64,000 nt of DNA from Candidatus Rariloculaceae bacterium (GTDB lineage Bacteria > Pseudomonadota > Gammaproteobacteria > Steroidobacterales > Rariloculaceae), in NCBI GenBank assembly GCA_965237785.1, contig OZ250159.1:455989-519988 (forward strand). The letters are read 5' to 3'. Below are positions 8,383 to 29,392 of this stretch, piece by piece; position 1 is the stretch's first letter, and each line of letters opens with the position of its first letter. The notes beneath the pieces were generated by a model that saw nothing but the letters and a program-made list of their open reading frames with translations, was not told where the DNA came from and ran no database searches. Both the position numbers and the translations under genes were made by a program.

Positions 8383-10050
8383 ATGTCGCAATCCGTTCAG
8401 GCGTTGCTGGCCGTGCTGCCGATTCTGGTTGCGGCGATTCTTCTGGTTGGTTTTCGTATGCCCGCGCGCGTCGCGATGCCGGCCGTGTACGTGCTTGCGG
8501 TGGTGATCGGGCTGTTTGCCTGGACGATGCCGGTCGCCCAAATCGCCGCGGCGTCGATTCAGGGTCTTTTCATCACCTTCGAGATCCTGTTCATCATTTT
8601 CGCGGCGATTCTCCTGCTCAATACCTTGAAACGCTCGGGTGCCATCGCCGCAATTCGGGCGGGCTTTGCCACCATCACCCCGGATCGGCGGGTGCAGGTC
8701 ATCATCATCAGTTGGCTCTTCGGAAGCTTCATCGAGGGCGCATCGGGTTTCGGGACGCCGGCGGCGATTACGGCTCCGTTGCTGGTTGCGCTGGGATTCC
8801 CGGCAATGACCGCGGTCATGCTGGGGATGATGGTTCAGAGTACGCCCGTGACGTTCGGCGCGGTGGGGACGCCGATTCTGGTGGGCGTGAGCGGTGGGCT
8901 GGATAGCCCGGAAGTGTCCCGGCAACTGGCGGCGGCAGGGATCGAGTTCGGAGACTATCTCCAGATCATCACCGAGCATGTGGTTTGGCTGCACGCGATC
9001 GTGGGGACGGTGATGCCGTTGTTCATGGTCGTGATGATGACGCGGTTTTTCGGCCGGAACCGCTCGTGGACGGAGGGCTTGTCGATCTGGCCGTTCGCGC
9101 TGCTCGGCGGAGTTGCCTTCACGTTGCCGTATTTGCTCAGCGGCATTTTTCTGGGACCCGCGTTTCCATCGCTGCTTGGCGGATTGGTCGGTCTGGCGAT
9201 TGTCACGACGGCGGCCAGGAAGCGGTTTCTGGTTCCCGATGACGAGTGGGATTTCGCGCCGCGCGCCGACTGGCCCCTCGATTGGGTCGGGCGCTTGGAA
9301 ATGCGCCTTGAAACGCCCAAAAAACAGATGTCGGGCGTGCGAGCATGGTCGCCCTACCTGTTGGTTGCCGGATTGCTCGTCATTTCGAGGCTCCCGCAAC
9401 TTCCTGTCGGCGAACTGTTGCGGACGCTGGTTTTTCGCTGGGAGTCGATCCTGGGTACGTCAGTGACGGCCACTACGACGCCCCTGTATCTGCCCGCCAC
9501 GATGGTGCTCGTGGCCGCGCTCGCGACAGTCGCGCTGCACCGCATGCGCGGGCGTCAGTTTGTCGCCGCGTTTACGGAATCGTCGAGAACGCTGTTGGGC
9601 GCCGGTTTCGTGCTCGTGTTCACGGTGCCCATGGTGCGCATCTATATCAACTCCGATGTGAACGCGCTGGGGCTCGAGAGCATGCCCATCGTGATGGCCG
9701 ACTGGGTTGCCGTCAATGTCGGCGCCGTGTGGCCATTCTTTGCGCCGTTCATCGGCGCGCTGGGGGCGTTCATCGCCGGCAGCAATACGGTCAGCAACCT
9801 CATGTTCGCCCTGTTGCAGCACGGTGTGGCCACCGCGCTGGGGATTTCCGCGGCGTTGGTGGTGGCGCTGCAAGCCGTGGGTGCGGCCGCGGGCAACATG
9901 ATTGCGATCCACAACGTCGTTGCGGCATCGGCCACGGTGGGGCTGCTTGGCCAGGAGGGCGCCACGCTGCGCCGCACGGTGATCCCGACGATCTACTATC
10001 TCGTCATGACCGGCGCGCTGGGCATGCTCGCGGTGAGTTTCCTCGGGTAG
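8383..10050 (+). CDS. lctP: L-lactate/glycolate permease family (LctP) transporter
   Basis: 555 aa, polytopic. [43 protein letters not shown] matches the conserved LctP-family block. Confidence 0.88.
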
Positions 10051-10222
10051 AACCGAATTTGTGCTCGGCGAACCGGAGACTGGATTCGGGCATACTATGC
10101 GCCCATCTCCACTTAGGAAGGCACCAAGTAGAGTTGGTCCCTTTCCGTAATTGGTTTCGGTGCCGGCAACGCTTGACGCGACCGTGCCGGGCACGCTTTA
10201 TGAGGATGTAGCAGGAGCATAG

Positions 10223-12991
10223 GTGGCACGTAAGAAGCAGGCAACGGGCCGCGCTGGCGCCCGTAAGAAAGGGCGGAGTGCCGGAAGTTACGCACATCCT
10301 GAAGCAAGCGCGCTGCTCCGGCCCGACATAGGTACACAGGCGCAGTTTCGTAAGAAAAAACCGCTGGCCAGGTACCGTTACGACTCCTCGCTTTCTCCAG
10401 CGCTTGACTGGGATGTGCAGAACCCCTCGCGTGAGCACGCTGAGGCGAAAATTGCGGCGCTGTCGGATCGAATTGCAAAGTTATCCGGGATTCTTGATTC
10501 GAAAAATCTGGCAGGAATTCCCGAGAGCGACCTCGCTGAAGTAAGGGCTGAATTAGCTGCGGCACGGGAAGATGCCGCTCAATTGGCAACGCTCTCCAGA
10601 CCGTTTCTCAACTGGACGGGCAAGGCCGAGCGGCTCTCCTTCGACGTACCGACACTGCCGCTGTTCGTCCATGAACGCCTATCGACATCGGCAATCCTGG
10701 AAACCCTGAAAGGGCACACCCGCGACCGTCAGGTGAATATGTTCGATCTGTTCGGGGAGAGTGATCTGCCGATTCACGAACGGTTGCTCAAGGCATATGA
10801 GCACCAGAACGGCTGGGTGAACCGGTTGATCCTTGGCGACGCCCTGGTAGTGATGAATTCCCTACTCAACTACGAGGGGCTCGGTGGTCAAGTGCAGACC
10901 ATCTACATGGATCCCCCCTATGCCGTGAAATTCGGTTCGAACTTCCAGCCGTTCGTGCGCAAACGCGGCGTTACGCACGGCGACGACGAAAACATGATCC
11001 GCGAACCGGAGATGGTGCAAGCCTACCGGGACACATGGGAACTGGGCATTCATTCCTTCCTGACCTATCTGCGGGATCGGCTGACACTGGCGCGGGAAAT
11101 GCTTCATCCTTCCGGAAGTATCTTCGTGCAGATGTCCGACACTAATCTGCATCACGTCCGCGAGGTGCTGGACGAGGTGTTCGGACCCGAGTGCTTCGTC
11201 TCGCAGATCAGCTTTCAGACCACCTCGGGCTTTCGGACCAAGACACTGGCGACACTCGGCGACTTCTTGCTGTGGTATGCGCGAGACCCGGAACGGCTGA
11301 AAGTTAGAAAGTTGTTCGAGGAGCAGCCTGCCATACCGGGCGAGGGGAATGCGAGATGGGTCCTGCTTCCGGACGGAACCTATCGGGGCGTGACCGCTGC
11401 GGAGAAACGCCGGGAAGTGCCACTGCCTGCCGATGCCCGGTATTATAATCCTGATAATTTGCAGTCGCAGGGAGCGGCCCGGGACCCGCAGCCCTTCGAA
11501 TTCGGGGGTAAAGTTTACCAACCGGGCGCCAATTCGCACTGGAAACCCAACTACCCCGACGGGCTTGAGGAGCTTGTCGCTGCGGGTCGGATTCACGTGG
11601 CCGCCAACAGCATTAGATACCGCCGGTTTGCCACGGATTTTCCATTCAAGGAGCGGGGAAACCTCTGGACGGACACCCTCACAGGCAGCTTCACGGGCGA
11701 GAAAACATACGTCGTGCAGACGAATCCCAAGGTTATCGAGCGCTGCCTGCTGATGACCACCGATCCGGGCGACCTCGTTCTGGATCCTACCTGCGGTTCG
11801 GGGACGACCGCCTATTGCGCGGAGAAATGGGGGCGGCGGTGGATCACCGTCGACACTTCCCGAGTACCCATCGCGCTCGCCCGGCAGCGGCTGCTCACCA
11901 GCACTTTCGACTTCTATCAACTCAAGGAGCCTGATCGGGGACCTGCCGGAGGCTTCGACTATCGTCGCAAAACGAACTCCAAGGGGGAAGAAGTCGGCGG
12001 AATCGCGCCACACGTGACACTCGAATCGATCGCTAACAACGAGCCGGCGAAGGAGGAAGTGCTCGTTGACCGGCCGGAAAAGGACGGCGGCATAACGCGC
12101 GTGAGCGGGCCATTCTGGATTGAAGCGACCATACCGACTCCGGTGGATTGGGAGGGGGACGGTGAGGAGGACTCGGGCGACATTCTTGCTGCCGCCGCTT
12201 ACACGAACCATGTAGAGCGTATGGTCGAGGTGCTGCGGCGTTCGCCGGTGCTGCATCTCGGTGGCGGTCGAAGGCTCAGCCTGTCCAAGGTACGTCCGCC
12301 CGCCCGTTCCATGAGTCTGTCCGCGGAGGCTCTGGTGGAAGATGACGGCAAGCAGAGGGTTGCAATTGTCTTCGGACCCGAGAATGGCGCAGTCTCGGAA
12401 ACTCTGGTGTTCGAGGCGGCACGCGAAGCCTACGGCAAAGCATACGACCACCTCTACGCGATCGGATTTGCCATCCAGCCCGACGCAAGGCGTCTGGTCG
12501 AGGAATGCGAGAAAGCGGTCGGAGTGGCCGCGACTTACGTGCAGGCGAGCATGGATCTGGTGATGGGAGACTTGCTCAAGAACCTGCGGTCGAGCCAGAT
12601 TTTCTCGGTCTGTGGGTTGCCGGACATACGGATACGCCGAGCAGAAACGAAAAGCTACCAGGTTGAACTTCTCGGACTCGACGTTTTCGATCCCGTGGAG
12701 ATGGATTCCGACCATCGGAGCGGAAATGACGTCCCCGCGTGGTTCCTCGATACGGACTACAACGGACTCTGTTTCCATGTCTGTCAGGCGTTCTTTCCGC
12801 GGACTTCAGCGTGGAGCGCACTCAGGCGTTCGCTTCGCGGCGAATTCGATGACGATGTGTGGTCACATTTATCGGGCACGGTCAGCACTCCGTTTCAAGC
12901 GGGTGGACACGGCCAGATCGCGGTGAAAGTTGTCGATGATCGAGGCAATGAACTGATGGTCGTCAAGCCGCTTTCGGATACCGAGACGTGA
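10223..12991 (+). CDS. mod: Type III restriction-modification Mod subunit (beta-class N6/N4 DNA methyltransferase)
   Basis: GTG 10223 after AGGAG. Motif IV IYMDPPYAVKF (~10901-10930) precedes motif I LVLDPTCGSGTTA (~11771-11812). The stop overlaps the next start (GTGA at 12988-12991). Confidence 0.88.
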   Translation: MARKKQATGRAGARKKGRSAGSYAHPEASALLRPDIGTQAQFRKKKPLARYRYDSSLSPALDWDVQNPSREHAEAKIAALSDRIAKLSGILDSKNLAGIPESDLAEVRAELAAAREDAAQLATLSRPFLNWTGKAERLSFDVPTLPLFVHERLSTSAILETLKGHTRDRQVNMFDLFGESDLPIHERLLKAYEHQNGWVNRLILGDALVVMNSLLNYEGLGGQVQTIYMDPPYAVKFGSNFQPFVRKRGVTHGDDENMIREPEMVQAYRDTWELGIHSFLTYLRDRLTLAREMLHPSGSIFVQMSDTNLHHVREVLDEVFGPECFVSQISFQTTSGFRTKTLATLGDFLLWYARDPERLKVRKLFEEQPAIPGEGNARWVLLPDGTYRGVTAAEKRREVPLPADARYYNPDNLQSQGAARDPQPFEFGGKVYQPGANSHWKPNYPDGLEELVAAGRIHVAANSIRYRRFATDFPFKERGNLWTDTLTGSFTGEKTYVVQTNPKVIERCLLMTTDPGDLVLDPTCGSGTTAYCAEKWGRRWITVDTSRVPIALARQRLLTSTFDFYQLKEPDRGPAGGFDYRRKTNSKGEEVGGIAPHVTLESIANNEPAKEEVLVDRPEKDGGITRVSGPFWIEATIPTPVDWEGDGEEDSGDILAAAAYTNHVERMVEVLRRSPVLHLGGGRRLSLSKVRPPARSMSLSAEALVEDDGKQRVAIVFGPENGAVSETLVFEAAREAYGKAYDHLYAIGFAIQPDARRLVEECEKAVGVAATYVQASMDLVMGDLLKNLRSSQIFSVCGLPDIRIRRAETKSYQVELLGLDVFDPVEMDSDHRSGNDVPAWFLDTDYNGLCFHVCQAFFPRTSAWSALRRSLRGEFDDDVWSHLSGTVSTPFQAGGHGQIAVKVVDDRGNELMVVKPLSDTET

Positions 12992-14631
12992 TCCACACAG
13001 TCCGAATTTGCGGCTTCAAGCGATTCCAGGATGTGGAATTCCACTTGCCGGGGCACCTGGTTTTAGCAGGTCCCAACAATACCGGTAAAACTACAGTGCT
13101 TCAGGCCATCGCCTCATGGTCGCTTGCCTTGCGGCAGTGGAGAGCGCTGAACGACTTCAATCCTCGACAAGGATACACGAATGCGCCGATTGCCCGGCAT
13201 GCGTTCGCGTCGGTTCCCCTCAGGAGCTTCGATCTGATGTGGACGGACCGCCAATATCGGGGGAAGATCGAGATCGAGATTCGGCACAACACGGGCTGGT
13301 CAGTGACGATGGAGTTCATCGCCGACAGCACGGAGCAGATATACGTTCGGCCAGCGAACACGCCTGCTGATGTTTTACGAGAGCTCGATCTTCGTGCGGT
13401 ATTCATCCCTCCCATGACTGGTCTTGAAGTCGACGAGCCACTTTATCAGCGTCCGAAAATTGAGCAGCTTCTCGGCCTCGGCCGTCCAGGCGATGTCCTG
13501 CGAAATCTGCTGGTGGAAGTGAACACCAACGAGTCTGCTTGGGATGCGCTCCAAGCTTCCATAAAAAAGCTATTCGGCTACGAACTCCTGCCTCCCGATT
13601 CCAGCGGCGCGCACATTCTTTCCGAATACAGGATGGTGGAAGGCGGGCAATCTTTGGACATCGCGAGTGCCGGCAGCGGTTTTCAACAAGTTCTGATGCT
13701 GCTCGCGTTTCTCAACACACGAGAGGGCGCGGTACTGCTCCTGGACGAACCGGACGCGCATCTACACTTGATTCTCCAGGACGCGATTTACCATGAGTTA
13801 CGGACGGTTGCCGCCCGGCAGCATTCGCAGCTCATCGTTGCGACCCACTCTGAGGTCGTGATCAACACGGTCGAACCTCGTGAGTTGTGCGTCTTGGTCA
13901 ACCAACCGCGTATGGTTGCCGACAACGTTGAGCGAGGGAGACTAATTTCTTCGCTTCGCGTATTGAGCAACGCGGACGTGATGCAGGCCCTGAGTGTCCG
14001 TGGCGTCCTTTATGTGGAGGATTTTACTGACATCAATATCCTTCGTTCGTGGGCTGCCCAGCTCGGACACCAGGCCGAGAATCTATTGACCACGGAATTG
14101 ATGTGGAAACCGGTGGTCTTTCAGGCGCAGGACGGACGACCGGGAATCAGGGCGCGGGATCATTTCGATGCCTTGCGGATCGTGCACGACAATCTTCCTG
14201 GACTCGAACTCGTCGACGGTGATGCGCATCCGGCGATCCAGGCCAGCGAGATCACTGGGACTGGCTTGCAGCGGCAACGCTGGCAGCGCTACGAGATCGA
14301 AAGCTACCTCATCCACCCGGATGCGCTCGCCCGTTTCGTGACAGCCATGGTAGGGGCAGACTCTGCTGCACCGCATGTGGAGGACATGCTTGCCTACTGG
14401 CGCGACGAGTTTCCGCCGGCGGTGGTAAGGAATCCGCTCGCTGACCACGAATTCCTGAATACGACCAAGGCTCGTACGCGGCTAATTCCGCCGCTACTGG
14501 AAGCGGCGGAAATCTTCATTCCCTACACCCGCTACCATGAGATTGCAGCGTTGATGCTTCCTGAAGAAATCCACCCCGAAGTCGTGGAGAAACTGGATGC
14601 AATCTGCCTCGCATTCCGAGTCGAGCCGTGA
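12988..14631 (+). CDS. ABC-type ATPase fused to a TOPRIM/DUF4435-like domain (OLD-family / PARIS-like protein)
   Basis: Walker A GPNNTGKTT (13069-13095). Signature-like SAGSGFQQVL. Walker B/D-loop LLLDEPDAHLH (~13735-13767). H-loop VATHSE. C-terminal half has YVEDFTD (~14010-14030), LVDGDAH (~14208-14230) and YEIESYL (~14290-14310), matching the TOPRIM order Glu ... DxD ... E. The ATPase call is confident; the TOPRIM call is motif-level only. Confidence 0.65.
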   Translation: MIHTVRICGFKRFQDVEFHLPGHLVLAGPNNTGKTTVLQAIASWSLALRQWRALNDFNPRQGYTNAPIARHAFASVPLRSFDLMWTDRQYRGKIEIEIRHNTGWSVTMEFIADSTEQIYVRPANTPADVLRELDLRAVFIPPMTGLEVDEPLYQRPKIEQLLGLGRPGDVLRNLLVEVNTNESAWDALQASIKKLFGYELLPPDSSGAHILSEYRMVEGGQSLDIASAGSGFQQVLMLLAFLNTREGAVLLLDEPDAHLHLILQDAIYHELRTVAARQHSQLIVATHSEVVINTVEPRELCVLVNQPRMVADNVERGRLISSLRVLSNADVMQALSVRGVLYVEDFTDINILRSWAAQLGHQAENLLTTELMWKPVVFQAQDGRPGIRARDHFDALRIVHDNLPGLELVDGDAHPAIQASEITGTGLQRQRWQRYEIESYLIHPDALARFVTAMVGADSAAPHVEDMLAYWRDEFPPAVVRNPLADHEFLNTTKARTRLIPPLLEAAEIFIPYTRYHEIAALMLPEEIHPEVVEKLDAICLAFRVEP

Positions 14632-17600
14632 ACCCTCACGAGGTTCCCGAGCCAATCCTGAACTCGCCTTTCGAGGAACCGAGGGAGCATTGGCGCATCG
14701 TGGAGTACGAACCGCCGGAGCGGCGGGTTGGCCGGCGCCCAGCCATGTACTTCTACCGGCCGCCCGGAAGCGAATCCTCGCCGGAACGGCAGGGAGTCGG
14801 AACGGCAATCGGGTTGAAGTTGGTCAACCGGATTCGCGCCAAACTCGCCGAGTGGAGAACATTGGCGCTACGGGGCGAAGGCGGCGTGACTCGAACCACA
14901 ATGGAGTTGTTGCGCTATTGGCGCCGGGAGGATCGCAAGCACCGGCTGTTTTTCGCGCAGCTTGAAGCTGCTGAAACGATCATTTTCCTCGCGGAGGCAC
15001 GGGCGGACTTCTTGCAAGGGATCGATGTCCCGCTCGACCAGCCCAGTGCGGATGCGCAGGCCGACGGAATCCGGGCTTTCCGGCGTTACGCATGCAAGAT
15101 GGCGACGGGCACGGGAAAGACGACGGTCATGGGCATGCTTGCCGCCTGGAGCATTCTCAACAAGGTGACGGATCGGGGAAACGCACGGTACTCGGACGTG
15201 GTACTCGTTGTCTGCCCTAACGTAACAATCCGAAACCGGCTCGAAGAACTCAAGCCGCAAGGGGGCGAAGCCAGCCTGTACCGCACGCGCGACCTCGTCC
15301 CGCCGCGCTTCATGCCGCAACTCGCTCAAGGACACGTGCTGGTCACCAACTGGCACGTGTTCGAACCAAAAGCGATTCAAGTTGCGGGCCAGTCGGCGAA
15401 GGTCGTTCGCGCCGGTCGCGAGGTCCGGACAAGGGAAACTATCCGTATCGGCGCCAAGACAACGACAGTGCGCGGTGTGCGCTATCTGACCTTGAATGCT
15501 CTCGAACGGCAAACGGCCGCTGGGCTGATTGACATTCTGGATGAACACCGGGATCGGCAAGACAACCTCAAGGCCGTCTCGGTGGAATCGTTTCGGTATG
15601 TCGAGAGCGACACCAAGCTCATCGAACGCGTGCTCGGGCGCGAAATCGGAGGCAAACGAAATATCCTGGTCATGAACGACGAAGCCCATCACGCTTATCG
15701 GTTACGGCCCACCGAAACGGACGAAGGCGAGAAAGACTTGTTCGGCGAATTGGACGATGTAGAGGAGTACTACCGAGAGGCCACCGTGTGGGTCGACGGT
15801 CTGGATCGAATTCACAAGCATCGCGGCATCAACCTATGCATCGACCTTTCCGCGACGCCGTACTTTCTGGGGCGGGCCGGACAGGACGCGAACCGCCCGT
15901 TTCCCTGGGTCGTCTGCGATTTTGGGCTCATCGATGCCATCGAGTCGGGTCTGGTCAAGATCCCGCAACTCGCTGTTCGCGACACCAGCGGTAACGCGGT
16001 TCCCGGTTACTTCAACATCTGGCGCTGGATTCTTCCGAAGCTGACGCCAGCGGAACGCGGTGGGAGGCGCGGACGCGTGAAGCCGGAAGCCGTGCTCAAG
16101 TACGCGCACGTGCCGGTGGTGATGCTCGGTGGTTTGTGGGATGCGCTACGTGCGGAGTGGTCGCGGCGCGAAGGAGATAGCCGGCCACCCGTTTTCATCA
16201 TCGTTTGCAACAATACCGCGCTCGCCAAGGTTATTTTTCAGTGGCTCGCCGAGGACAAGGCGCCGGTGGGTATACCCCCGGCGCGGATCGACGAATTGCG
16301 TAACGCGAACGGGAATAACTACACGATTCGCGTGGACTCCAAGGTCGTGCGTGAATCTGACAGCGGGCAGGCGAAGTCTGACGAAGATCGGTGGATGCGT
16401 TTTACGCTGGATACGGTCGGAAAGATCGATTGGCCAATGGACGGGCAAAGGCGCTCTATCTACCCGGAGGGGTTCGAGGCGTTAGCGAAGAAACTTGAGC
16501 GCACACTACATCCGCCTGGCCGGGATGTGCGGTGCATTGTAAGCGTGGGAATGTTAACAGAGGGATGGGACTGCAATACCGTTACCCATATCATCGGACT
16601 TCGCCCCTTCATGTCCCAATTGCTTTGCGAGCAAGTTGTCGGTAGAGGTCTGCGGAGATCCAGCTATGCCGTGGGAGAAGATGGCAAGCTGGGCGAGGAA
16701 GTCGCCAAGATCTTCGGCGTCCCGTTCGAGATCGTGCCGCTGAAGGAGAACCCTCCGGGCGTTGACCCGAAGCCCGACGCGAAGACCTGGCGGATCCGGG
16801 CAGTGCCTGAGAAGGTGCATCTGGAGATTCGTTTTCCGCGCGTGGAGGGCTACATCCAGGGGATCCGGCACCGCGTGAAGGTGGACTGGGAGAACATAGC
16901 CCCGCTCCGACTCGATCCGATGGACATCCCGCCCGAGGTGGAAATGAAGGCGGGGCTTCCGAGCAACACGGGCAGGCCGTCCCTCGTCGGTCCGGGACAT
17001 CTTGAGCGCGTGGATCTCAACCCTTACCGCAAGGGGCGTCGCCTCCAGCAACTGGTATTCGAAATGGCGCGAGACCTTACTCGGGAATACCGGCAACAAC
17101 CCGGCTGCGATGCGCCGGCGCATGTGTTGTTTTCCCAGCTTGCGCTCATCGTCACTCGCTACCTCAAAGAGAAGGTTCATCCCATCGATCCGGCGCGGGA
17201 CGTCGACGCGTTCCTTTCTCCTTGGTACGGGTGGCTCGTGGAACGGCTTGTAACCGCCATCCAGCCAGACAACGAGAGCGGGGAGGATGCCGAGTTGCCA
17301 CGTTTCGAGAGCGGTCGGCGACCCGGATCAACGAACGAGGTTGACTTTGACACGCGTCAAGAACCTTATCCGGTCGTCAAGAGCCATATCAATGCGGTCG
17401 TGCCCGATACGGCCAAGTGGGAGCAAATGGCTGCGTATCGACTGGACAAGCATGACCATGTGCAGGCTTTCGTAAAGAATGCTGGGCTCGGTTTTGCAAT
17501 CCCGTATTTTCACAATGGTGAGCACCATGAGTATCTGCCCGACTTTATTATCCGGCTGACGGGAGACCGAGAGCGCTACCTTATACTGGAAACGAAGGGC

Positions 17601-17753
17601 TACGATCCACTTGAGGAGGTAAAAGCGCAGGCGGCGAACAGGTGGGTCCGGGCTGTGAATACCGACGCGGGCTTCGGCACTTGGGATTATGCCGTCGTAT
17701 CGGATATGAGCAAGGTTGGAGATGAGGTCGACCGGTCGGCGGCCTCATTGTAG
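14628..17753 (+). CDS. res: Type III restriction enzyme Res subunit (SF2 helicase plus C-terminal PD-(D/E)xK nuclease)
   Basis: The GTG start overlaps the upstream stop (GTGA 14628-14631). Motif I KMATGTGKTT (~15096-15131), motif II VMNDEAHHAY (~15666-15695), MLTEGWDCNTV, motif VI QVVGRGLRR (~16631-16657). C-terminal YLPDFIIRL...YLILETKGYD (~17538-17607) is nuclease-like. Confidence 0.9.
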   Translation: MNPHEVPEPILNSPFEEPREHWRIVEYEPPERRVGRRPAMYFYRPPGSESSPERQGVGTAIGLKLVNRIRAKLAEWRTLALRGEGGVTRTTMELLRYWRREDRKHRLFFAQLEAAETIIFLAEARADFLQGIDVPLDQPSADAQADGIRAFRRYACKMATGTGKTTVMGMLAAWSILNKVTDRGNARYSDVVLVVCPNVTIRNRLEELKPQGGEASLYRTRDLVPPRFMPQLAQGHVLVTNWHVFEPKAIQVAGQSAKVVRAGREVRTRETIRIGAKTTTVRGVRYLTLNALERQTAAGLIDILDEHRDRQDNLKAVSVESFRYVESDTKLIERVLGREIGGKRNILVMNDEAHHAYRLRPTETDEGEKDLFGELDDVEEYYREATVWVDGLDRIHKHRGINLCIDLSATPYFLGRAGQDANRPFPWVVCDFGLIDAIESGLVKIPQLAVRDTSGNAVPGYFNIWRWILPKLTPAERGGRRGRVKPEAVLKYAHVPVVMLGGLWDALRAEWSRREGDSRPPVFIIVCNNTALAKVIFQWLAEDKAPVGIPPARIDELRNANGNNYTIRVDSKVVRESDSGQAKSDEDRWMRFTLDTVGKIDWPMDGQRRSIYPEGFEALAKKLERTLHPPGRDVRCIVSVGMLTEGWDCNTVTHIIGLRPFMSQLLCEQVVGRGLRRSSYAVGEDGKLGEEVAKIFGVPFEIVPLKENPPGVDPKPDAKTWRIRAVPEKVHLEIRFPRVEGYIQGIRHRVKVDWENIAPLRLDPMDIPPEVEMKAGLPSNTGRPSLVGPGHLERVDLNPYRKGRRLQQLVFEMARDLTREYRQQPGCDAPAHVLFSQLALIVTRYLKEKVHPIDPARDVDAFLSPWYGWLVERLVTAIQPDNESGEDAELPRFESGRRPGSTNEVDFDTRQEPYPVVKSHINAVVPDTAKWEQMAAYRLDKHDHVQAFVKNAGLGFAIPYFHNGEHHEYLPDFIIRLTGDRERYLILETKGYDPLEEVKAQAANRWVRAVNTDAGFGTWDYAVVSDMSKVGDEVDRSAASL

Positions 17754-22690: not shown

Positions 22691-24910
22691 ATGAGCGGTT
22701 CACATCAACTCGCGACGGCGCAACGGCGAATGAGTCGTCCGTGCCTGCCTGCCGCCGCCGCCCTGGCGACCGCGTTGTCGTTTGCGATCGCCACGCCTCT
22801 CAGCGCCCAACAGGCCACTGTCTCGGCGTCAGGTGGCGCCAAGGTGCTGGCGGTAGCGCGCACCGACGCACCCCCGGCGATCGACGGCGTGCTGGACGAT
22901 GCCGTTTGGGCGAACGCGCCGTCCATGGACGACATGCACCAATATGCCCCAATCGACCAAGCCGATCCATCCGAGCGCACCGAAGTCTATATCCTCTACG
23001 ACAGCGACAACCTCTATGTCGGCGCGCGGATGTGGGATAGCGATCCCGAGCAGATCACCGCCCGGCAAATGGTTCAGGGCGGTACGCTGCGGTGGGACGA
23101 TTCGATCGGGATTTATCTCGATCCCTTCAACAACAATCGCAGCGGATACAGCTTTCAGGTCAATCCCAACAGCAGCCGCGAGGACGGCATGTTCGAAACG
23201 CCCACGCGCCTGAACCGGGATTGGAATGGCGTGTGGTTCGCGGAGGCTGCCATCGATGAACATGGCTGGACGGCCGAGATCGCCATTCCATTCAAGACCT
23301 TGAACTTCAATCCGGACAACCCGGATTGGGGATTTACGGTAGAGCGCACCATCGCTCGCCGCCAGGAAGAAATTGCCTGGGTATCGTTCAACCGCCAGGT
23401 CAATCCCGGCACCACGGGAACGATTACCGGCCTGACCGGGCTCCGGCAGGGCAGGGGACTCGATGTAGTGCCCTCTTTGGTGACATCCGGTGTCAAAAAC
23501 TTCGCCACGAGCGTGAGCGATTCGTCCACGGAGCCGGCGCTGGACATTTTCTACAACCTCACCCCGTCTCTGAGCGGTGTGCTGACCTTGAATACCGATT
23601 TTTCCGCCACCGAAGTGGACGATCGGCAGATCAATCTGACCCGCTTTTCGCAGTTCTTTCCGGAGAAGCGGGACTTCTTTCTGCAAGACGTGGACATTTT
23701 CGCCTTCGGCGGCTTGCGGCGGAACGGCATCCCGTTCTTTTCGCGCCGGATCGGCTTGAGCCTACGAGGTCAGCCAGTGGACCTGGGCGTGGGCGCAAAG
23801 CTGACCGGGCGTATCGGCCGGTGGAATGTCGGCGTATTGGATATCCAGCAGGATGAATTCCAGGGAGTCGACAGTACCAATCTGTTTGTCGGTCGCGTTG
23901 CGGCCAACGTCCTGGAGGAGTCCAGCGTCGGCATGATCGTTACCAACGGCGACCCCCGAGCCAATCTCGATAACTCCCTGTTGGGCGTGGACTTCCGGTA
24001 TCGCAATACGCGTCTTCCGGGTGGCCGGACCCTGGAAGGAGAAGCCTGGTACCAACAGTCCGACACCGAAGGCGTCACGGGCGATGAGAGCGCCTGGGGT
24101 GTCCGGTTGTCGACGCCGAACAACACGGGCCTGCGCGGCGAAGTGGGCCTGGAGCATTTCGATGAGGATTTCAACCCTGCTTTGGGGTTCGTAAACCGCC
24201 ACGGGATCGAGCGCACCGAGGTCGGAGTCGGTTACACGAGCAGACCCGTCCATCCGTGGATCAGGGCTGTATCCCATGGTGTTTTTTATGAGGGCTACGA
24301 AAAAATTTCCGGCGGGCTGGAGAGCGAACGCCTGTTCGCCGAGTTGATCGAGCTGGAGACCAATTCCGGCGATGACTTCAGCATCAATCTGAATTATCGG
24401 CGTGAGGTGCTGTTCGAAGAATTCGAAGTGGTGGACGGTAACGTTATTCCAGCAGGCGAATATGAATACGGTGGATTTAGTTTCGAGGTTTCGGGAGCCT
24501 CGGAACGGGTCTTCGCGCCGGGATTCGAGTATTTTCGTGGGAAATTTTTTAACGGCGACCGGGTGGAAATGTCCGCGGAACTGGACTGGCGTCCGAATCG
24601 GCGGCTGTCGATGGGCTTCGAGTACGAATACAACGACATCGAATTGCCGGGCGGCCAATTCATCACGCGGTTGATCGCCGTCAACGCCGATGTGGCCTTC
24701 AACGTCCGCTGGTCATGGCTCAACCTGATGCAGTATGACAACGAGTCGGAATCTCTCGGTATCAATAGCCGCCTGCGGTGGAATCCCCGCGCCGGGCAGG
24801 ATCTGTTCATTGTCGTCAATCACGGCTATTCAGCCGAGGGCGTGTTCTCCGGGCTGAGTTCCGAGCAGTCCCAGATCGCCGTGAAATATACTCATACGTT
24901 TCGTTTTTAA
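22691..24910 (+). CDS. CBM9/DOMON-like plus DUF5916-like beta-rich secreted or outer-membrane protein
   Basis: Signal-like MSRPCLPAAAALATALSFAIATPLSAQQ, then DGVLDDAVWANAP...YILYDSDNLYVGARMWD (CBM9-like), a long beta-strand-rich C-terminus and a terminal F. Start ambiguous among 22673, 22691 and 22730. Confidence 0.7.
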   Translation: MSGSHQLATAQRRMSRPCLPAAAALATALSFAIATPLSAQQATVSASGGAKVLAVARTDAPPAIDGVLDDAVWANAPSMDDMHQYAPIDQADPSERTEVYILYDSDNLYVGARMWDSDPEQITARQMVQGGTLRWDDSIGIYLDPFNNNRSGYSFQVNPNSSREDGMFETPTRLNRDWNGVWFAEAAIDEHGWTAEIAIPFKTLNFNPDNPDWGFTVERTIARRQEEIAWVSFNRQVNPGTTGTITGLTGLRQGRGLDVVPSLVTSGVKNFATSVSDSSTEPALDIFYNLTPSLSGVLTLNTDFSATEVDDRQINLTRFSQFFPEKRDFFLQDVDIFAFGGLRRNGIPFFSRRIGLSLRGQPVDLGVGAKLTGRIGRWNVGVLDIQQDEFQGVDSTNLFVGRVAANVLEESSVGMIVTNGDPRANLDNSLLGVDFRYRNTRLPGGRTLEGEAWYQQSDTEGVTGDESAWGVRLSTPNNTGLRGEVGLEHFDEDFNPALGFVNRHGIERTEVGVGYTSRPVHPWIRAVSHGVFYEGYEKISGGLESERLFAELIELETNSGDDFSINLNYRREVLFEEFEVVDGNVIPAGEYEYGGFSFEVSGASERVFAPGFEYFRGKFFNGDRVEMSAELDWRPNRRLSMGFEYEYNDIELPGGQFITRLIAVNADVAFNVRWSWLNLMQYDNESESLGINSRLRWNPRAGQDLFIVVNHGYSAEGVFSGLSSEQSQIAVKYTHTFRF

Positions 24911-24960
24911 GCCTCGCGGCGTCAAGCCGCATTCAGACAACGCGAGAAGGTGCCATCAGT

Positions 24961-25083
24961 ATGAATCGATGTACGGCGCTGGTCGTGGTCGTGCGTACCG
25001 GTCGAGATGGTCGCACGCGGTTGATTTCCGCCCGTCCGGCGTCCCGTAAGGAAAGGCTGGCTTATCATGAACGAATACGATAG
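24961..25083 (+). pseudogene. brnT remnant (C-terminal ~40 codons only)
   Basis: ALVVVVRTGRDGRTRLISARPASRKERLAYHE aligns with IVAVVYAYRNDDVRLISARPATRKEKKAYAQ of the intact brnT at 3943..4215. The N-terminal two thirds are absent. Confidence 0.7.
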
Positions 25084-25230
25084 ACCTCTTACACCCGCGG
25101 AGATCGCGGCCACGAAGGACGAGCGCATCGGCTTCAGCGATATACCCGAATTAGATGAGGCATTCTGGCGGCAGGCGAAACTTGTCGAACCTGCCGTACT
25201 TGGGCGCAAGCGAAAACAAGTCCGGTTCCA
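25067..25230 (+). pseudogene. brnA-like antitoxin remnant (N-terminal part only)
   Basis: MNEYDRPLTPAEIAATKDERIGFSDIPELDEAFWRQAKLVEP is a BrnA-type N-terminus that overlaps the brnT remnant as in intact modules. The RHH C-terminus is missing, and the frame continues into unrelated antisense sequence. Confidence 0.55.
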
Positions 25231-25760
25231 GGGTCCGCGGCGCTGCAGTAAACAGAACTTCATCGTAGTAAACGCGGTTCATCCCGTGGGTAACGATTAT
25301 GGACCCGCGGGCGGCGTATGTGCGAACCCCACCCAAGTGATCGAAATGATGATGTGTGTTGACGAGGTATCGAATTGGCTTATTGGAAGTCAGCCGATCG
25401 ACTTCCGCAATCACCGCCAGCGAACGAGCCTCGTTTACCGGCGCTTCGATTACCGTGACAAAATCGCCGAACTCGACAGCTACGCTGTTGTGCGACCCTC
25501 CGCCCAGAAACTACACTCCGTCTGCTATCTCGCGAGACTCTACCCGAACTGGCGGAACCTTCGCCTGTCGCACAACTTCGGGAACCGGTAACGCAGCAAC
25601 CGCAACATTCGGTCTAACGTCGTTCACCGTAAGCAGCATAATATTGTGGGCCGCAGTGACTCGGGCATCTCCGAAATGTTGGTCCATGTCGATTGGAAAT
25701 CCGATTTCCCCAAAATCCTTGTAACCACCACGGTAAAAAACTTCATATAGCATGTCCCCC
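25151..25760 (-). pseudogene. metallo-beta-lactamase-fold hydrolase pseudogene (in-frame TAG, truncated 3' end; 5' extent uncertain)
   Basis: Same-frame translation reads ...ESREIADGV*FLGGGSHNSVAVEFGDFVTVIEAPVNEARSLAVIAEVDRLTSNKPIRYLVNTHHHFDHLGG (HxHxDH motif). The TAG is at 25511-25513. Only ~55 codons follow the motif, and the 5' boundary is approximate. Confidence 0.6.
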
Positions 25761-25840
25761 AGAACCGGGCGAAAGCCGCCGTTGCTCGCCCTGGATAGGA
25801 AAACCGGGACCGCCGCCGAGGGGTCGCCAGTTAAGTCCAG

Positions 25841-26638
25841 TTGCGAATGAGCAAGCACATCCTGCCCGGCTTGGGCGACCTGCTGGTTTCGGAAGTGGAG
25901 CGCAAGCACATCCTGAAGTTCCAGTACGGGCTGAGGGAGATGCCGACCGTCGCGAACCGCACGGTCGACATGCTGGTGAAGATGTTCAACCTGGCCGAAC
26001 TGTGGGAGATGCGTCCTGCGGGACGAAACCCCTGCAAGTCGGTGCGCCGCTACAAGGTGCAACGGCACAAGGAGCGGTTCCTGACGTCGGAGGAACTGGC
26101 GCGGCTCGGGCGTGTACTGGACGTCGCCCCGGCGAAGCGGCTGGCGTCGCGGCATTCGGCGGCGGCGATCCGGCTCCTGATCCTGACCGGGTGCCGGAGA
26201 AACGAGATCATGGGACTGGCCTGGGACGATCTCGACTTCGAGGCGGGCGAGATGCGATTGAGGGACAGCAAGACCGGGGCGCGGATCGTGCCGCTGCCGC
26301 CCGCGGCCGCGGAGGTACTGGCGGACCTCCCGAACGTCGCGGGCAACCCGTGGGTGTTTCCCGGCAGGAAGAAGGGAACCCATCAGGTGAACATCAACGA
26401 TTCCTGGGATCGCATTCGCCGGCGCGCCGGTCTCGATGGCGTGCGGCTGCACGATCTGCGCCACACCTTCGCGTCGAGGGCACTCGCGCTCGGGGAGGGC
26501 TTGGCGATGATTGGCGAACTGCTCGGTCATACGCAGGTCAACACCACGGCCCGCTACGCGCACCTGGCCCGGGAATCCATCCAGGCCTCCACCGCGAAGG
26601 TCGCCGACAGCATTGGCGCGGACATCCTTGCGGAGTAG
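25841..26638 (+). CDS. tyrosine recombinase/integrase, 5'-truncated copy (lacks N-terminal arm-binding domain)
   Basis: Aligns with the downstream integrase from its residue ~125 onward (HILPGLGDLLVSEV... vs RHILDRHLLPALGNLRLGEL...). Catalytic region HDLRHTFASRAL...LGHTQVNTTARYAHL is present. TTG/ATG start with an in-frame TAA just upstream. Confidence 0.8.
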   Translation: MRMSKHILPGLGDLLVSEVERKHILKFQYGLREMPTVANRTVDMLVKMFNLAELWEMRPAGRNPCKSVRRYKVQRHKERFLTSEELARLGRVLDVAPAKRLASRHSAAAIRLLILTGCRRNEIMGLAWDDLDFEAGEMRLRDSKTGARIVPLPPAAAEVLADLPNVAGNPWVFPGRKKGTHQVNINDSWDRIRRRAGLDGVRLHDLRHTFASRALALGEGLAMIGELLGHTQVNTTARYAHLARESIQASTAKVADSIGADILAE

Positions 26639-26642
26639 TGGC

Positions 26643-27842
26643 ATGGCGAAGCTCGACCGGCAAACGATTTCCAGGCGGACCGTCGAGTCGCTCCCGGTGG
26701 GCGGCCGCGAAGCGGTGTACTGGGACACGGAGCTTTCGGGCTTCGGGGTCCGGGTGTACCCGTCGGGATCGAAGGTCTTCCTGGTGCAGACGCGCGCGGG
26801 GGGCAAGTCGCGGCGGATGACCGTCGGACGGCACGGCCTGATCTCGGCGGAGCGGGCGCGGCGCAAGGCGGCAAAGCTCATCGCGGATATCAAGGCCGGA
26901 AACGAGCCCGATGCGGTCAACGGCGCCTCCCGGCGCGACGCCGGCCCCACGGTGGCCGAGGTGGCGGAGCGGTACATGACGGAGCACGTTGCGGTGCGCT
27001 GCAAGCCCGCCACAATGCGGCATTGCCGGCACATTCTGGACCGCCATCTGCTACCGGCGCTGGGCAACCTGCGCCTCGGGGAACTCGGGCGCGAGCGCGT
27101 CGCGGCCCTGCAATACGCTCTCCACGAGACGCCGGCGATGGCGAACAAGGCGGTGGACATGCTTTCTCGCCTGTTCCACATGGCCGAGCTCTGGGGCGTC
27201 GCGCCGGAGGGCGGCAATCCCTGCCGTTTCGTACGCAAGTACAAGGAACGCCCGCGCGAACGATTTCTGTCGGACGGAGAGTTCCAACGCCTCGGACGCG
27301 TACTGTGCGAGGTTCAATCCGAAGGCAAGGTCTATCCGAGCGCGGTGGCGGCGTTCCGTCTGCTGATGCTCACCGGTTGCCGGAGAAACGAGATCCTGAC
27401 GCTGCGCTGGGAGGATGTGGACCTCGGGGCCGGAGAGCTTCGATTGCGCGACGCCAAGACGGGTGCGCGATCCGTCGCCCTATCGCCTTCGGCGCGGAGC
27501 GTGCTGGAAGGTCTGCCGCGCCAACAGGACAATCCCTGGGTAATGCCCGGCGCGAAGCCGGGCCAACACTACAGCAATCTCAACAACGCCTGGGCGGTCG
27601 TGCGGTCCCGCGCCGGCCTGGACGATGTGCGCATTCACGATCTGAGGCACAGCTTCGCGTCTCGTGCGTTGGCTCTGGGCGAGAGCCTGCCGATGATCGG
27701 CAAGCTGCTCGGCCACCGGAAGGTGCAGACCACGGCGCGCTACGCGCACCTGGCGCGGGATTCCGTGAAGGTGGCCGCCGCGCGCGTCGCCGAAAGCCTG
27801 CGGGCGGATCTGGCGGGCGAGCCTGCCGCGACGGGACCGTGA
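26643..27842 (+). CDS. P4-like tyrosine integrase (DUF4102 N-terminal domain plus phage-integrase catalytic domain)
   Basis: ATG 26643. N-terminus LPVGGREAVYWDTELSGFGVRVYPSGSKVFLVQTRAGGKSRRMTVG (DUF4102-type). Catalytic R...HDLRHSFASRAL...LGHRKVQTTARYAHL. Confidence 0.9.
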   Translation: MAKLDRQTISRRTVESLPVGGREAVYWDTELSGFGVRVYPSGSKVFLVQTRAGGKSRRMTVGRHGLISAERARRKAAKLIADIKAGNEPDAVNGASRRDAGPTVAEVAERYMTEHVAVRCKPATMRHCRHILDRHLLPALGNLRLGELGRERVAALQYALHETPAMANKAVDMLSRLFHMAELWGVAPEGGNPCRFVRKYKERPRERFLSDGEFQRLGRVLCEVQSEGKVYPSAVAAFRLLMLTGCRRNEILTLRWEDVDLGAGELRLRDAKTGARSVALSPSARSVLEGLPRQQDNPWVMPGAKPGQHYSNLNNAWAVVRSRAGLDDVRIHDLRHSFASRALALGESLPMIGKLLGHRKVQTTARYAHLARDSVKVAAARVAESLRADLAGEPAATGP

Positions 27843-28103
27843 CGCGGCCCGCCCCGGAAACTCGTTCAGCATACTGACAGGCCAATGATAATGAAGTGAC
27901 AGCCGCCGGAAGGAGTCGATCCCGGTTTGCCTAACTCTTGTCATCTAGAAAAACTCAGGAGCACACGCCATACACGGCTCGGCGAGCTCGGGTCCCTCGG
28001 CCACCGGCGCGCCGCGTGTCGTGTTGTAGGCGAAGCGCGTGCGATGTACGCTGCAAGAACCGCCACGAATGAACTTGAGGTCGGATCCTTGCCGTTCCCC
28101 GCC

Positions 28104-28736
28104 ATGAGGCGCCCTGACGCCGTTTCCCACTTGTTTCGGGCACTTCTCTTCTGTCTTCTGGCCTGTCTTGTTCCCATCGGGGCCACCGCCCAATCATTGG
28201 ACACCCTGTTTGGTGTCTACCCGGGACAGATGAACGATAGCGGCGTGACGCTGTACGGTGTCGTCGGTCGGATACCCGATTCCCCGACGGCGATGGGCAC
28301 CGTGCTGGCCGTGCAGATCACGGCAGCCGACCCGCAGGCGACGACGGCCGCGCGCGAACAGGCTGGCGATGCACCGTGCGCGAACTGCACCGCAGCCCAC
28401 TACTTCCTCCTGAGCGAGCGTTCCCGGACGCGCCCGAACGTCTTCATTCACGCACCCGGACCCGTGACGTATCTCGTCGCGAACGACAAGGAGTACATGC
28501 TTACGAGTATTCGTCTGGCGTGGACGGACGACCGTCCACGCCTCGAGCGAGCCACGCTGATGCGCACCGGTTTCCTCCCCCCTCTCTTCAAGCAGAAGAT
28601 CAGGATTCACTTCGACGCCCCGCTGGAACCCGGTACCCGCACCGAGGAAATCGCCGGCATGGCCTTGGCGGACATGATGGAATCCGAACGAATCGCTCAA
28701 GCAGCCTACCAAAACGCCCTGAACGCCCATCGGTGA
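28104..28736 (+). CDS. hypothetical secreted protein
   Basis: ATG 28104 gives the signal-like MRRPDAVSHLFRALLFCLLACLVPIGATAQS. No recognisable motif. Confidence 0.45.
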   Translation: MRRPDAVSHLFRALLFCLLACLVPIGATAQSLDTLFGVYPGQMNDSGVTLYGVVGRIPDSPTAMGTVLAVQITAADPQATTAAREQAGDAPCANCTAAHYFLLSERSRTRPNVFIHAPGPVTYLVANDKEYMLTSIRLAWTDDRPRLERATLMRTGFLPPLFKQKIRIHFDAPLEPGTRTEEIAGMALADMMESERIAQAAYQNALNAHR

Positions 28737-28768
28737 CCGTCAGCCGCTCGCCTGACAACGTCGCGAGC

Positions 28769-29345
28769 TCAAGGGTTTTGGTCCGACGCCGGCCGATACA
28801 CGAACTCGTCCTCCGAGAGAACCAGCTTGCGCAGGCGCGCGTTGGTGAACTCCTGATTCGTTGTTGCGGTTTGGAGAACGTCCCTGAACGCCGGCAGCTC
28901 GGTGAACCGCGCGGTGAACGGCTCGAACGTGGTCGCGCTCGCCTCGACCACGGGACCGAAGGTACTGGTGCCCGTTTTGTGCCTCAGCTTGAACGCGTAT
29001 TCGGTACTCGAGGCGAGGTTCGGGACCTCGTACTGGTTGCCATTGGGCTCGCTCGGCCTGCTCAGGGGAATTTCCGTCCAGGCACCGAACGATCCGCCGC
29101 TCGCCGCGACTTGGTACTCGATGTCCGAACGGTCGGGGCGACCCCGGAATACCCAGGACAGCACCACGCTGTTGTGCGTCGGGTCGGCGGCGGCACGGTT
29201 GGGAGCGGGTGCCGCCTCGTCTTCCTCGATCGCGACCGTGCTGGAGAGAATGTCCACGACCGCGGTCGTGGTACCCGAAAGCGTCACGCGTCGGTCGCCG
29301 GTGTAGGTGTCGTCCGAAATCCGCGTCGCGAAGTACCGGCACGGC
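28769..29345 (-). pseudogene. orphan 5'-truncated fragment of an adhesin passenger (Fn3-containing), paralog of the middle of 32573..35338
   Basis: DDTYTGDRRVTLSGTTTAVVD...PTHNSVVLSWVF...GGSFGAWTEIP...YEVPNLASSTEYAFKLRHK...ATTFEPFTARFTELPAF aligns with NSDTYTGDRSVTLSGASAEDVD...PTHNSAVLSWRF...YEVPNLASSTEYAFKLRYK...ATTFEPFTARFTDLPAF. There is no signal peptide and no beta-barrel. Confidence 0.75.
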
Positions 29346-29392
29346 GAGCCCCGGCACCCCTGAATTGGATGTGTACGGGGCTCGACGGCAAC

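Follow-up and report, generated by a model that had tools for sequence, protein, structure and literature searches.

A PARIS-like ATPase-nuclease gene between mod and res of a Type III-like restriction-modification operon: a candidate embedded guardian

Between the two genes of a Type III-like restriction-modification (R-M) system we found a third gene, whose product is predicted to join an ATP-binding cassette (ABC) ATPase to a TOPRIM-type nuclease. The three genes, here called mod, mid (the middle gene) and res, lie in a 64,000-nucleotide stretch of DNA, the window, from Candidatus Rariloculaceae bacterium (contig OZ250159.1, positions 455,989 to 519,988 of the forward strand). By analogy with characterised systems we read the locus as a three-gene defence operon in which mid would be an embedded, PARIS-like second-line 'R-M guardian' i.e. 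a suicide back-up for restriction, and we give this reading a probability of about 0.55. R-M systems of this kind occur without mid and mid occurs without R-M, i.e. the two are independent modules in both directions. The reading of mid as an autonomous guardian is based on its standalone deep relatives, on the existence of two-gene systems that lack it, and on its survival of R-M loss.

A third gene between mod and res

The first-pass annotation of this DNA had described mod, a 547-residue middle gene and res, joined by GTGA overlaps, and its coordinates proved exact. The three plus-strand open reading frames (ORFs) encode proteins of 922 (Mod), 547 (Mid) and 1041 (Res) residues, and the locus therefore departs from the canonical two-gene mod-res layout of Type III systems. 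The features are:

10051..10222, plus strand: intergenic, candidate (presumed) operon promoter region, from the stop of the L-lactate permease gene (10050) to the start of mod
10223..12991, plus strand: mod, predicted 922-residue beta-class N6/N4 DNA methyltransferase of a Type III-like R-M system
12988..12991, plus strand: mod/mid GTGA overlap, mod stop TGA over mid start GTG, read directly from the sequence
12988..13902, plus strand: mid, N-terminal ABC-type ATPase, residues 1 to ~305 (Pfam AAA_21/AAA_15, PADLOC, Foldseek)
13999..14322, plus strand: mid, putative TOPRIM/DUF4435-type nuclease core, residues ~338-445 (relatives' profiles, domain model, acidic residues)
14323..14631, plus strand: mid, C-terminal helical region, residues ~446-547 plus stop (modelled helices, predicted local distance difference test (pLDDT) >90)
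14628..14631, plus strand: mid/res GTGA overlap, mid stop TGA over res start GTG, read directly from the sequence
14628..17753, plus strand: res, predicted 1041-residue superfamily 2 (SF2) helicase-nuclease, BPTD_3080-family restriction endonuclease

The junction letters are ...GAG ACG TGA / GTG ATC between mod and mid and ...GAG CCG TGA / GTG AAC between mid and res. Among related loci, a spacing of -4 nucleotides is found at 38 of 45 scorable mid-to-res junctions (with an overlap of any length at 42/45) and at 31 of 44 mod-to-mid junctions. Because they are kept across related loci, the overlaps are no chance feature of the window. From these conserved overlaps we infer a single mRNA for mod, mid and res; consensus promoter and terminator scans gave counts at or below shuffled expectation and were uninformative on transcription.

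Mod matches Pfam N6_N4_Mtase (PF01555, 5.7e-25) and PADLOC MTase_III (PDLC03632, 3.2e-144). Its motif order is that of the beta class, with DPPY (~residues 230-233, ~10910-10921) ahead of the CGSG (~residue 525) of motif I, DPTCGSGTT (~residues 521-529, ~11783-11809). The ENA annotation of the contig calls the upstream mod as only 441 residues. Against the NCBIfam model NF046055 ('BPTD_3080 family restriction endonuclease', equivalog cutoff 800) Res reaches 1021.6 bits; the alignment takes in residues 7-1036 of Res and positions 2-968 of the 970 in the model. Pfam ResIII also matches (5.4e-6), RE_endonuc matches weakly, and the classical PADLOC REase_III models are weak on Res (8e-9 over 46 residues), which therefore points to a distinct Type III lineage. 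Res carries a Walker A motif ATGTGKT (~159-165), DEAHH (~351-355) and PD...ExK (~970-991, ~17535-17600), and these three motifs, together with DPPY of Mod, are kept in all 23 complete three-gene loci.

Judged by these motifs, mod and res are a complete Type III-like R-M system with its own nuclease. Since the R-M catalytic motifs are intact in 23/23 three-gene loci, restriction does not need mid for its nuclease. The earlier description of the system as Type III stands for the general character of Mod and Res, and has to be narrowed for their lineage: in sequence the system is a member of the BPTD_3080 family of Type III-like systems and not of the EcoP1/EcoP15 lineage. The searchable literature held no description of the BPTD_3080 family, and no paper that joins type III restriction to DUF4435.

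The middle gene product is a predicted OLD-family protein

The N-terminal part of Mid matches Pfam AAA_21 (3.2e-19) and AAA_15 (9.5e-18), and has a Walker A motif GPNNTGKTT (13069-13095), a signature SAGSG (~227-231), a Walker B motif LLLDEPD (250-256) and an H-loop histidine, H287. Conservation was counted over 89 full-length family members: G33-K34, G229/G231 and D253-E254 are present in 89/89 and H287 in 88/89. The PADLOC models NsnB, AriA, mad3, PtuA and GajA match the ATPase part of Mid only. NsnB is the best full-length ATPase match (2.5e-22, ATPase core only); AriA (1.6e-21) is confined to residues 211-293, and NsnB and mad3 cover the whole ATPase better. Sequence matches in the PDB were to PtuA, the N-terminus of OLD 6p74 and AriA (E = 0.036), and Foldseek matches were to PtuA, OLD and SMC heads.

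Public gene calls (NCBI/ENA; P0001, L179) begin mid at M84, which gives a protein of 464 residues and drops residues 1-83 (12988-13239). We take the GTG at 12988 to be the real start because a start at M84 would delete the invariant Walker A (G33-K34). Homologues keep the N-terminus from this GTG onward, and the M84 start of the deposited annotation is almost certainly wrong, with the protein probably truncated.

The C-terminal half, for which the first-pass annotation had proposed a TOPRIM/DUF4435-like domain, was placed mainly through its relatives. The C-terminal 244 residues of the window copy gave no Pfam match at E<=10, and a profile of 34 diverse family C-terminal domains gave no match to PDB sequences. 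When the same 34 domains were scanned singly against Pfam and PADLOC, 7 matched Pfam DUF4435 (best 1.1e-6), 23 matched PADLOC AriAB (best 6.8e-8) and 11 matched AriB (best 1.6e-8); there was a single weak match to Pfam DUF3226 and one of 34, at E = 0.2, to OLD-like_TOPRIM. The family has conserved acidic columns in 'VLYxEGxTD' (E344, D348), 'LxDxD' (D410, D412) and 'RYEIENYL' (E436, E438, Y440); E344 (14017-14019), D348, D410 (14215-14217), E436 and E438 are each kept in 87-89 of 89 sequences. The helical region that follows is without a profile match and contains a 'PEEIHPEV.EKLD' motif that is kept across the family.

The AlphaFold model of full-length Mid (pLDDT 78.9) aligns with 508 of 512 residues of Thermus scotoductus OLD (6p74), which is its best PDB structure match (E = 2e-9), and GajA was also aligned end to end. 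For a domain model of residues 310-547 (pLDDT 90.3, predicted template modelling score 0.87) the top five PDB matches are the C-terminal TOPRIM domains of Burkholderia and Xanthomonas OLD (6nk8, 6njx/6njv/6njw), with E ~3e-3, probability 1.0 and template modelling (TM) scores of 0.40-0.51, a second 6nk8 chain having E 0.017 and TM 0.35. PARIS AriB comes next (8ux9_A, E = 0.04, probability 0.6), with GajA a few ranks below.

Family profiles, acidic columns and domain model thus agree on a TOPRIM/DUF4435-like C-terminal half, as had been proposed, the window copy alone having no Pfam match. On its modelled fold and its motifs Mid is an OLD-family protein, with ABC ATPase and TOPRIM in one polypeptide. 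The nuclease domain is, as judged from the profiles, closest to the DUF4435/AriB type and a divergent relative of fused AriAB. The window copy would be a PARIS relative by transitive homology only, and current models would not call it PARIS. The family is probably under-annotated in genomes, because the window copy is without a nuclease-domain profile match and because public calls truncate mid.

The three-gene unit is conserved and has repeatedly lost its R-M genes

The mid family is large, with 4295 matches at E<=1e-5 in 90% clusters; when clustered at 50% identity it has 331 clusters with E<=1e-30. Members down to ~30% identity keep both domains. A scan of one genome per species gave 26 mid loci at 61-78% identity, which by record titles are from Gamma- and Alphaproteobacteria, Binatia, Thermodesulfobacteriota, Latescibacterota, Bryobacterales, Gemmatimonadota, Planctomycetota and Spirochaetota metagenome-assembled genomes. 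The complete colinear arrangement mod-mid-res was present at 15 of the 26. Three had an intact mid beside mod and/or res fragments only (L001, L003, L026), and five had an intact mid and no trace of this R-M system within 8 kb (L009, L011, L016, L017, L019); the remainder were one contig too short to judge and two loci with a truncated mid. Scanning metagenomes with the profile of the family gave 80 further loci at 31-64% identity, whose neighbours were classed by hidden Markov models (HMMs) derived from the window and from plasmid systems with annotation. Metagenome members at or above ~44% identity were almost always arranged as mod-mid-res, and those at 31-42% were mostly standalone; at 23 deep-branch loci with at least 1.5 kb of flank on each side, mid stood alone, with no R-M match and no recurrent neighbour family.

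In a neighbour-joining tree, 33 mod-mid-res loci including the window form one clade (~44-78% identity, several phyla). The recurrent linkage of mid to mod and res through overlapping codons, which the first-pass annotation had named as a check on its proposal, therefore holds across a monophyletic group. The three-gene package is conserved and has spread horizontally across many bacterial phyla. In the deep branches mid also lies between R-M genes in other configurations, with the order res-mid-mod at L121 and, at L090, with a mod and a res that are both divergent. In a further res-mid-mod locus of the deep branches (L101, 4946-5482), the res gene, upstream of a mid that is intact, has an internal deletion and retains only HMM positions 1-80 and 884-971, fused in tandem; here R-M has decayed and mid has been kept. 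A relative in which Mid has 51% identity (L027, 2384-7004, and L028) has its mod broken into two ORFs, which cover HMM positions 11-593 and 601-864; a second AAA_15/AAA_21 ATPase (490 residues) and a 153-residue gene lie between the split mod and mid, and mid still abuts res. In a relative with 62% identity (L030, 1275-15426) the three-gene operon is part of an apparent defence island with Trypco1 and Peptidase_S8 genes, a gene for a NucS_C-like protein, SIR2_2 and PIN_10/DUF433.

Solo copies of mid and copies with decayed R-M genes are scattered within the mod-mid-res clade, which indicates that R-M was lost repeatedly and independently while mid was kept. An intact mid beside decayed or lost R-M genes was found in at least eight cases, with catalytic residues kept (L019 has E344D). 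These losses bear on the proposal that mid is an addiction or stabilisation module, which would make loss of the operon lethal (post-segregational killing) or control restriction alleviation, with no part in phage defence. That the genes are tightly linked and are transferred together, as a single unit, across phyla would suit such a role, and the Pfam description of AAA_21 includes 'putative AbiEii toxin' i.e. a toxin-antitoxin (TA) annotation of such ATPases. We nevertheless consider it very improbable, because what is lost is R-M: repeated loss of the R-M genes while mid stayed is the opposite of enforced R-M retention. In addition, no antitoxin-like partner is present, and known abortive-infection nucleases have this same set of domains.

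When the pairwise distances of the three proteins are compared over the 23 complete loci, they correlate strongly (0.93 for mid-res, 0.91 for mid-mod and 0.96 for mod-res; Mantel p = 0.001), and mod, mid and res have therefore travelled together as a unit. Mean protein distances are 0.357 for mid, 0.331 for mod and 0.310 for res i.e. mid evolves slightly faster. This co-divergence of mid with res (r = 0.93) is also what would be expected under the main rival of the guardian reading, an integrated hybrid machine in which the restriction complex has Mid as a stoichiometric subunit, Gabija-like and with Res in the GajB role, so that either R-M target recognition licenses the TOPRIM nuclease or the Mid ATPase gates Res. 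The mid-to-res overlap in 42/45 loci and the position of mid between the R-M genes in both gene orders point the same way, and Class 2 OLD/GajA acts in a 4:4 complex with its helicase (PMC10568477). However, deep relatives of mid are standalone, an intact mid has outlasted res at least eight times and Res keeps its own PD-ExK nuclease in 23/23 loci, and we think an integrated machine unlikely.

No close member of the family was found on catalogued plasmids, where a tblastn search with Mid gave seven remote, ATPase-only matches (24-27% identity). Viral contigs yielded two full-length members only (L124 and L125, 32-33% identity), the rest being ATPase-only, and for this reason the family does not look phage-borne, unlike PARIS.

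The mod-res junction as a variable slot

BPTD_3080-type Res was found on 40 plasmids, none of which is among the seven plasmid records matching Mid, and we inspected 12 of these plasmid loci. In M. avium pS2b, Shinella and R. etli, mod directly abuts res. The M. avium pS2b system has a 4-nucleotide mod-to-res overlap and a Res 59% identical to that of the window, and its Mod (983 residues) and Res (1029 residues) are similar in length to those of the window, so that the three-gene Mod and Res have no obvious extra domain. The window locus resembles such two-gene BPTD_3080 systems in a Res above the equivalog cutoff, in mod-to-res order and in its 4-nucleotide overlaps; compared with the two-gene form it has a 1.64-kb gene exactly at the mod-res junction, with the overlap recreated on both sides. 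Adjacent R-M genes in the order res-mod were found in Chondrocystis, Rhodococcus and Hymenobacter. Chlorohelix (res at the record edge) and Sphingobium CAP-1 (IS21 upstream of res, no annotated mod) were uninformative.

At four of the 12 inspected plasmid loci other genes lie between the two R-M genes, and the mod-res junction of BPTD_3080 systems behaves as a variable slot. The slot on Planktothrix agardhii plasmid p3 (NZ_LR882966.1; L033, 5934-6998) holds a gene for a 354-residue protein with no Pfam match, which overlaps res by 4 nucleotides (Res there is 56% identical) and is a candidate embedded defence gene. The other three have their cargo between the two R-M genes or immediately behind them: Thermus brockianus has a DUF3800 protein (L035, 4140-4985), PCC 7002 pAQ5 a TA-like UPF0175 and DUF3368 pair (L041, 8097-8841) and Sphingomonas aliaeris a DUF3883 protein (L042, 7997-8965).

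The direct overlap of mod with res in close two-gene relatives, the absence of an obvious extra domain in three-gene Mod and Res by comparison with M. avium and the unrelated cargo in the same slot argue further against an integrated machine. The cargo also bears on the suggestion that mid is an unlinked hitch-hiker i.e. an independent OLD/PARIS-type defence gene or selfish toxin-like gene with a trigger unrelated to restriction (e.g. RecBCD inhibition, DNA damage or nucleotide depletion), embedded only for expression and co-transfer. That the slot takes many unrelated genes, a TA-like pair among them, would fit this suggestion, as would the standalone deep relatives and the solo survivors with intact catalytic residues, and Payne et al. 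(bioRxiv 10.1101/2024.01.29.577857) show that a system embedded in another generally defends on its own. On the other hand, mid has repeatedly been placed specifically between R-M genes, in several configurations, it shows long-term co-divergence with them and no shuffling of partners, and its closest functional relatives, PARIS and PrrC, are triggered by anti-restriction factors. Moreover, the solo mid of L016, a member of the embedded clade, again adjoins an R-M-type gene of another class, a convergent gene (9714-13028, minus strand) for a 1104-residue Type ISP/IIG-like methyltransferase (N6_Mtase + Type_ISP_C). We think an unlinked hitch-hiker unlikely.

Comparison with known defence systems

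At the level of its family, Mid resembles PARIS, and especially the single-gene fused AriAB form, in combining an ABC ATPase with a putative DUF4435-type TOPRIM domain. It differs in that the nuclease half of the window copy is without a match to the AriB, AriAB and DUF4435 models, and in that the ATPase over its full length is nearer to NsnB/MAD3-type small ABC ATPases than to AriA. PARIS is also typically a free-standing two-gene system of satellite and prophage hotspots, whereas mid is a fusion inside an R-M operon. PARIS fires on Ocr and cleaves tRNA-Lys, and PrrC, whose gene is embedded in the Type IC EcoprrI locus, is set off when R-M is inhibited by Stp; both have been termed an 'RM guardian system' (PMC12707154). 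PrrC is the paradigm of an R-M guardian, silenced by R-M and activated when a phage inhibits it, and like PrrC (and the RloA-C 'restriction-linked ORFs') mid is an ABC-type ATPase-nuclease gene between R-M genes. The host system of PrrC is Type I (Type IC EcoprrI hsd) whereas that of mid is Type III-like, and the anticodon nuclease domain of PrrC has its own fold, not TOPRIM. For the mid family, physical masking by R-M is hypothetical.

With the OLD family (Class 1, P2 Old and Thermus OLD 6p74; Class 2, GajA) Mid shares an ABC ATPase at the N-terminus and a TOPRIM at the C-terminus of one polypeptide, and with Class 2 also a helicase gene downstream. Identity is only 12-15%, and Pfam OLD-like_TOPRIM recognised just the one relative mentioned above. 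The published classes are single genes (Class 1), genes with a UvrD-like helicase neighbour (Class 2), retron-associated genes (Class 3) and the split AriA/AriB (Class 4), a scheme that explicitly leaves the fused AriAB forms unresolved; the context of mid between mod and res fits none of Classes 1-4. We rejected assignment to Gabija or OLD Class 2, since no UvrD/PcrA/Rep-like superfamily 1 (SF1) helicase is adjacent and the GajA models match the Mid ATPase only: the helicase next to mid is not a UvrD-like SF1 GajB but a Type III Res, which belongs to SF2 and has a nuclease of its own.

HEC-04 is also a fused ABC ATPase-TOPRIM gene nested in a multi-gene defence system. HEC-04 is embedded in Hma, defends alone and needs both Walker A and the TOPRIM acidic residues; the survey that describes it lists Hma, BREX, DISARM and Type I R-M as host systems, its sole 'type III' being DRT type III (bioRxiv 10.1101/2024.01.29.577857). 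HEC-04 was not among the best 25 PADLOC matches listed for the window Mid (HEC-01A was, by its ATPase part only), and no HEC model was among the six PADLOC families matched by C-terminal domains of the mid family.

Three other candidates were considered and set aside. Menshen (NsnABC) consists of the DUF262/ParB protein NsnA, the ABC ATPase NsnB (with DUF3696) and the inPIN-effector NsnC (PMC12065111); it was rejected as the closest system because only the ABC core is shared with NsnB and there is no DUF262 or NsnC-type neighbour. MADS, suggested by the mad2/mad3 matches, was rejected at 46.8 bits against an NCBIfam cutoff of 420, and its other genes are absent. The MORC/GHKL-type third genes of Type III-like operons (PMC2292703) are a precedent for a third ATPase but have a different fold.

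That defence genes may be embedded in defence systems is already established, as is the idea of an R-M guardian. What appears to be new is an OLD/PARIS-type gene inside a Type III-like R-M system, of which we found no description in the searchable literature, the ABC-ATPase classification of Krishnan et al. 2020 not being covered.

A putative guardian of restriction

In the mechanism that we propose, one transcript would give Mod, Mid and Res by termination-reinitiation at the two 4-nucleotide overlaps. Mod would methylate host DNA and Res would attack unmodified DNA. The ABC ATPase of Mid would act as sensor or switch over the C-terminal DUF4435/TOPRIM metal-dependent nuclease, and in the uninfected cell it would hold the nuclease off. 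If a phage or plasmid neutralised or bypassed restriction, e.g. with a DNA-mimic anti-restriction protein, the ATPase would change state and license the TOPRIM nuclease, which would then cut host tRNA or DNA and so abort the infection. That the genes are co-transcribed, what sets Mid off, what its nuclease cuts and that infection is aborted are all inferred. Of the two ideas in the first-pass annotation, a hybrid single machine and an anti-anti-restriction trigger, the data favour the trigger i.e. the guardian.

Several points weigh against a guardian of this kind. The window Mid itself fails every TOPRIM/DUF4435 profile of Pfam and PADLOC, AriB and AriAB included, and the structural match of its nuclease half is modest (E ~3e-3, TM 0.35-0.51). 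The proposed trigger and substrate are taken over by analogy from PARIS and PrrC. PARIS acts by release of AriB from an AriA scaffold; such a release is impossible in a fusion, and the activation of Mid must therefore differ from that of PARIS. Strict coupling, especially of mid to res, and co-divergence would also fit a stoichiometric complex with Res, and the intact solo copies could reflect recent R-M loss and not independent function.

If the guardian reading is right, its interest lies in extending what is known of layered immunity. Guardians that punish anti-restriction have so far belonged to Type I R-M (PrrC) or been free-standing (PARIS); a conserved, mobile three-gene unit would extend the same logic to Type III-like systems, and the single-gene AriAB/OLD forms would gain a defined genetic partner to test. 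The mod-res junction is also a candidate hunting ground for new defence genes, through 'guilt by embedding'. The interest would be greater if the guardian were physically wired to Res, or if the junction proved a general cargo slot. A tentative and rather doubtful extension combines these, with the junction as a dedicated, maintained docking slot for guardians and Mid wired to Res by a stoichiometry that coupling fixes, silent until the Res complex is inhibited. Were this true, Mid would be the first guardian of a Type III-like R-M system and the first among fused AriAB-type proteins to have a defined partner, and the locus would be a natural system in which to learn how the state of another immune machine is read by ABC-TOPRIM sensors.

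Surroundings of the operon

The genes upstream of the operon encode a cupin protein and L-lactate permease, and those downstream an NHL-repeat protein and a gamma-glutamyltranspeptidase. As the first-pass annotation had noted, no mobility gene is attached, which holds for the immediate flanks; no tRNA was found near the operon, and a search for insertion scars found no direct repeats bracketing it. The same annotation had called the operon lower in GC than its neighbours. This is correct for the immediate flanks (0.56-0.60 in the operon, 0.61-0.66 in the flanks), but other parts of the window also have values of 0.57-0.59 and the dip is marginal. Within positions 23001-30000, GC moves from ~0.57 (23-26 kb) to 0.66-0.70 (26-30 kb), a swing that exceeds the dip at the R-M operon. 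Long ORFs also run antisense to mod, mid and res (e.g. 638 residues at 10862-12778, minus strand); their low-complexity, Arg/Gly/Pro-rich translations look spurious, as is usual for DNA of ~60% GC, and unlike genes.

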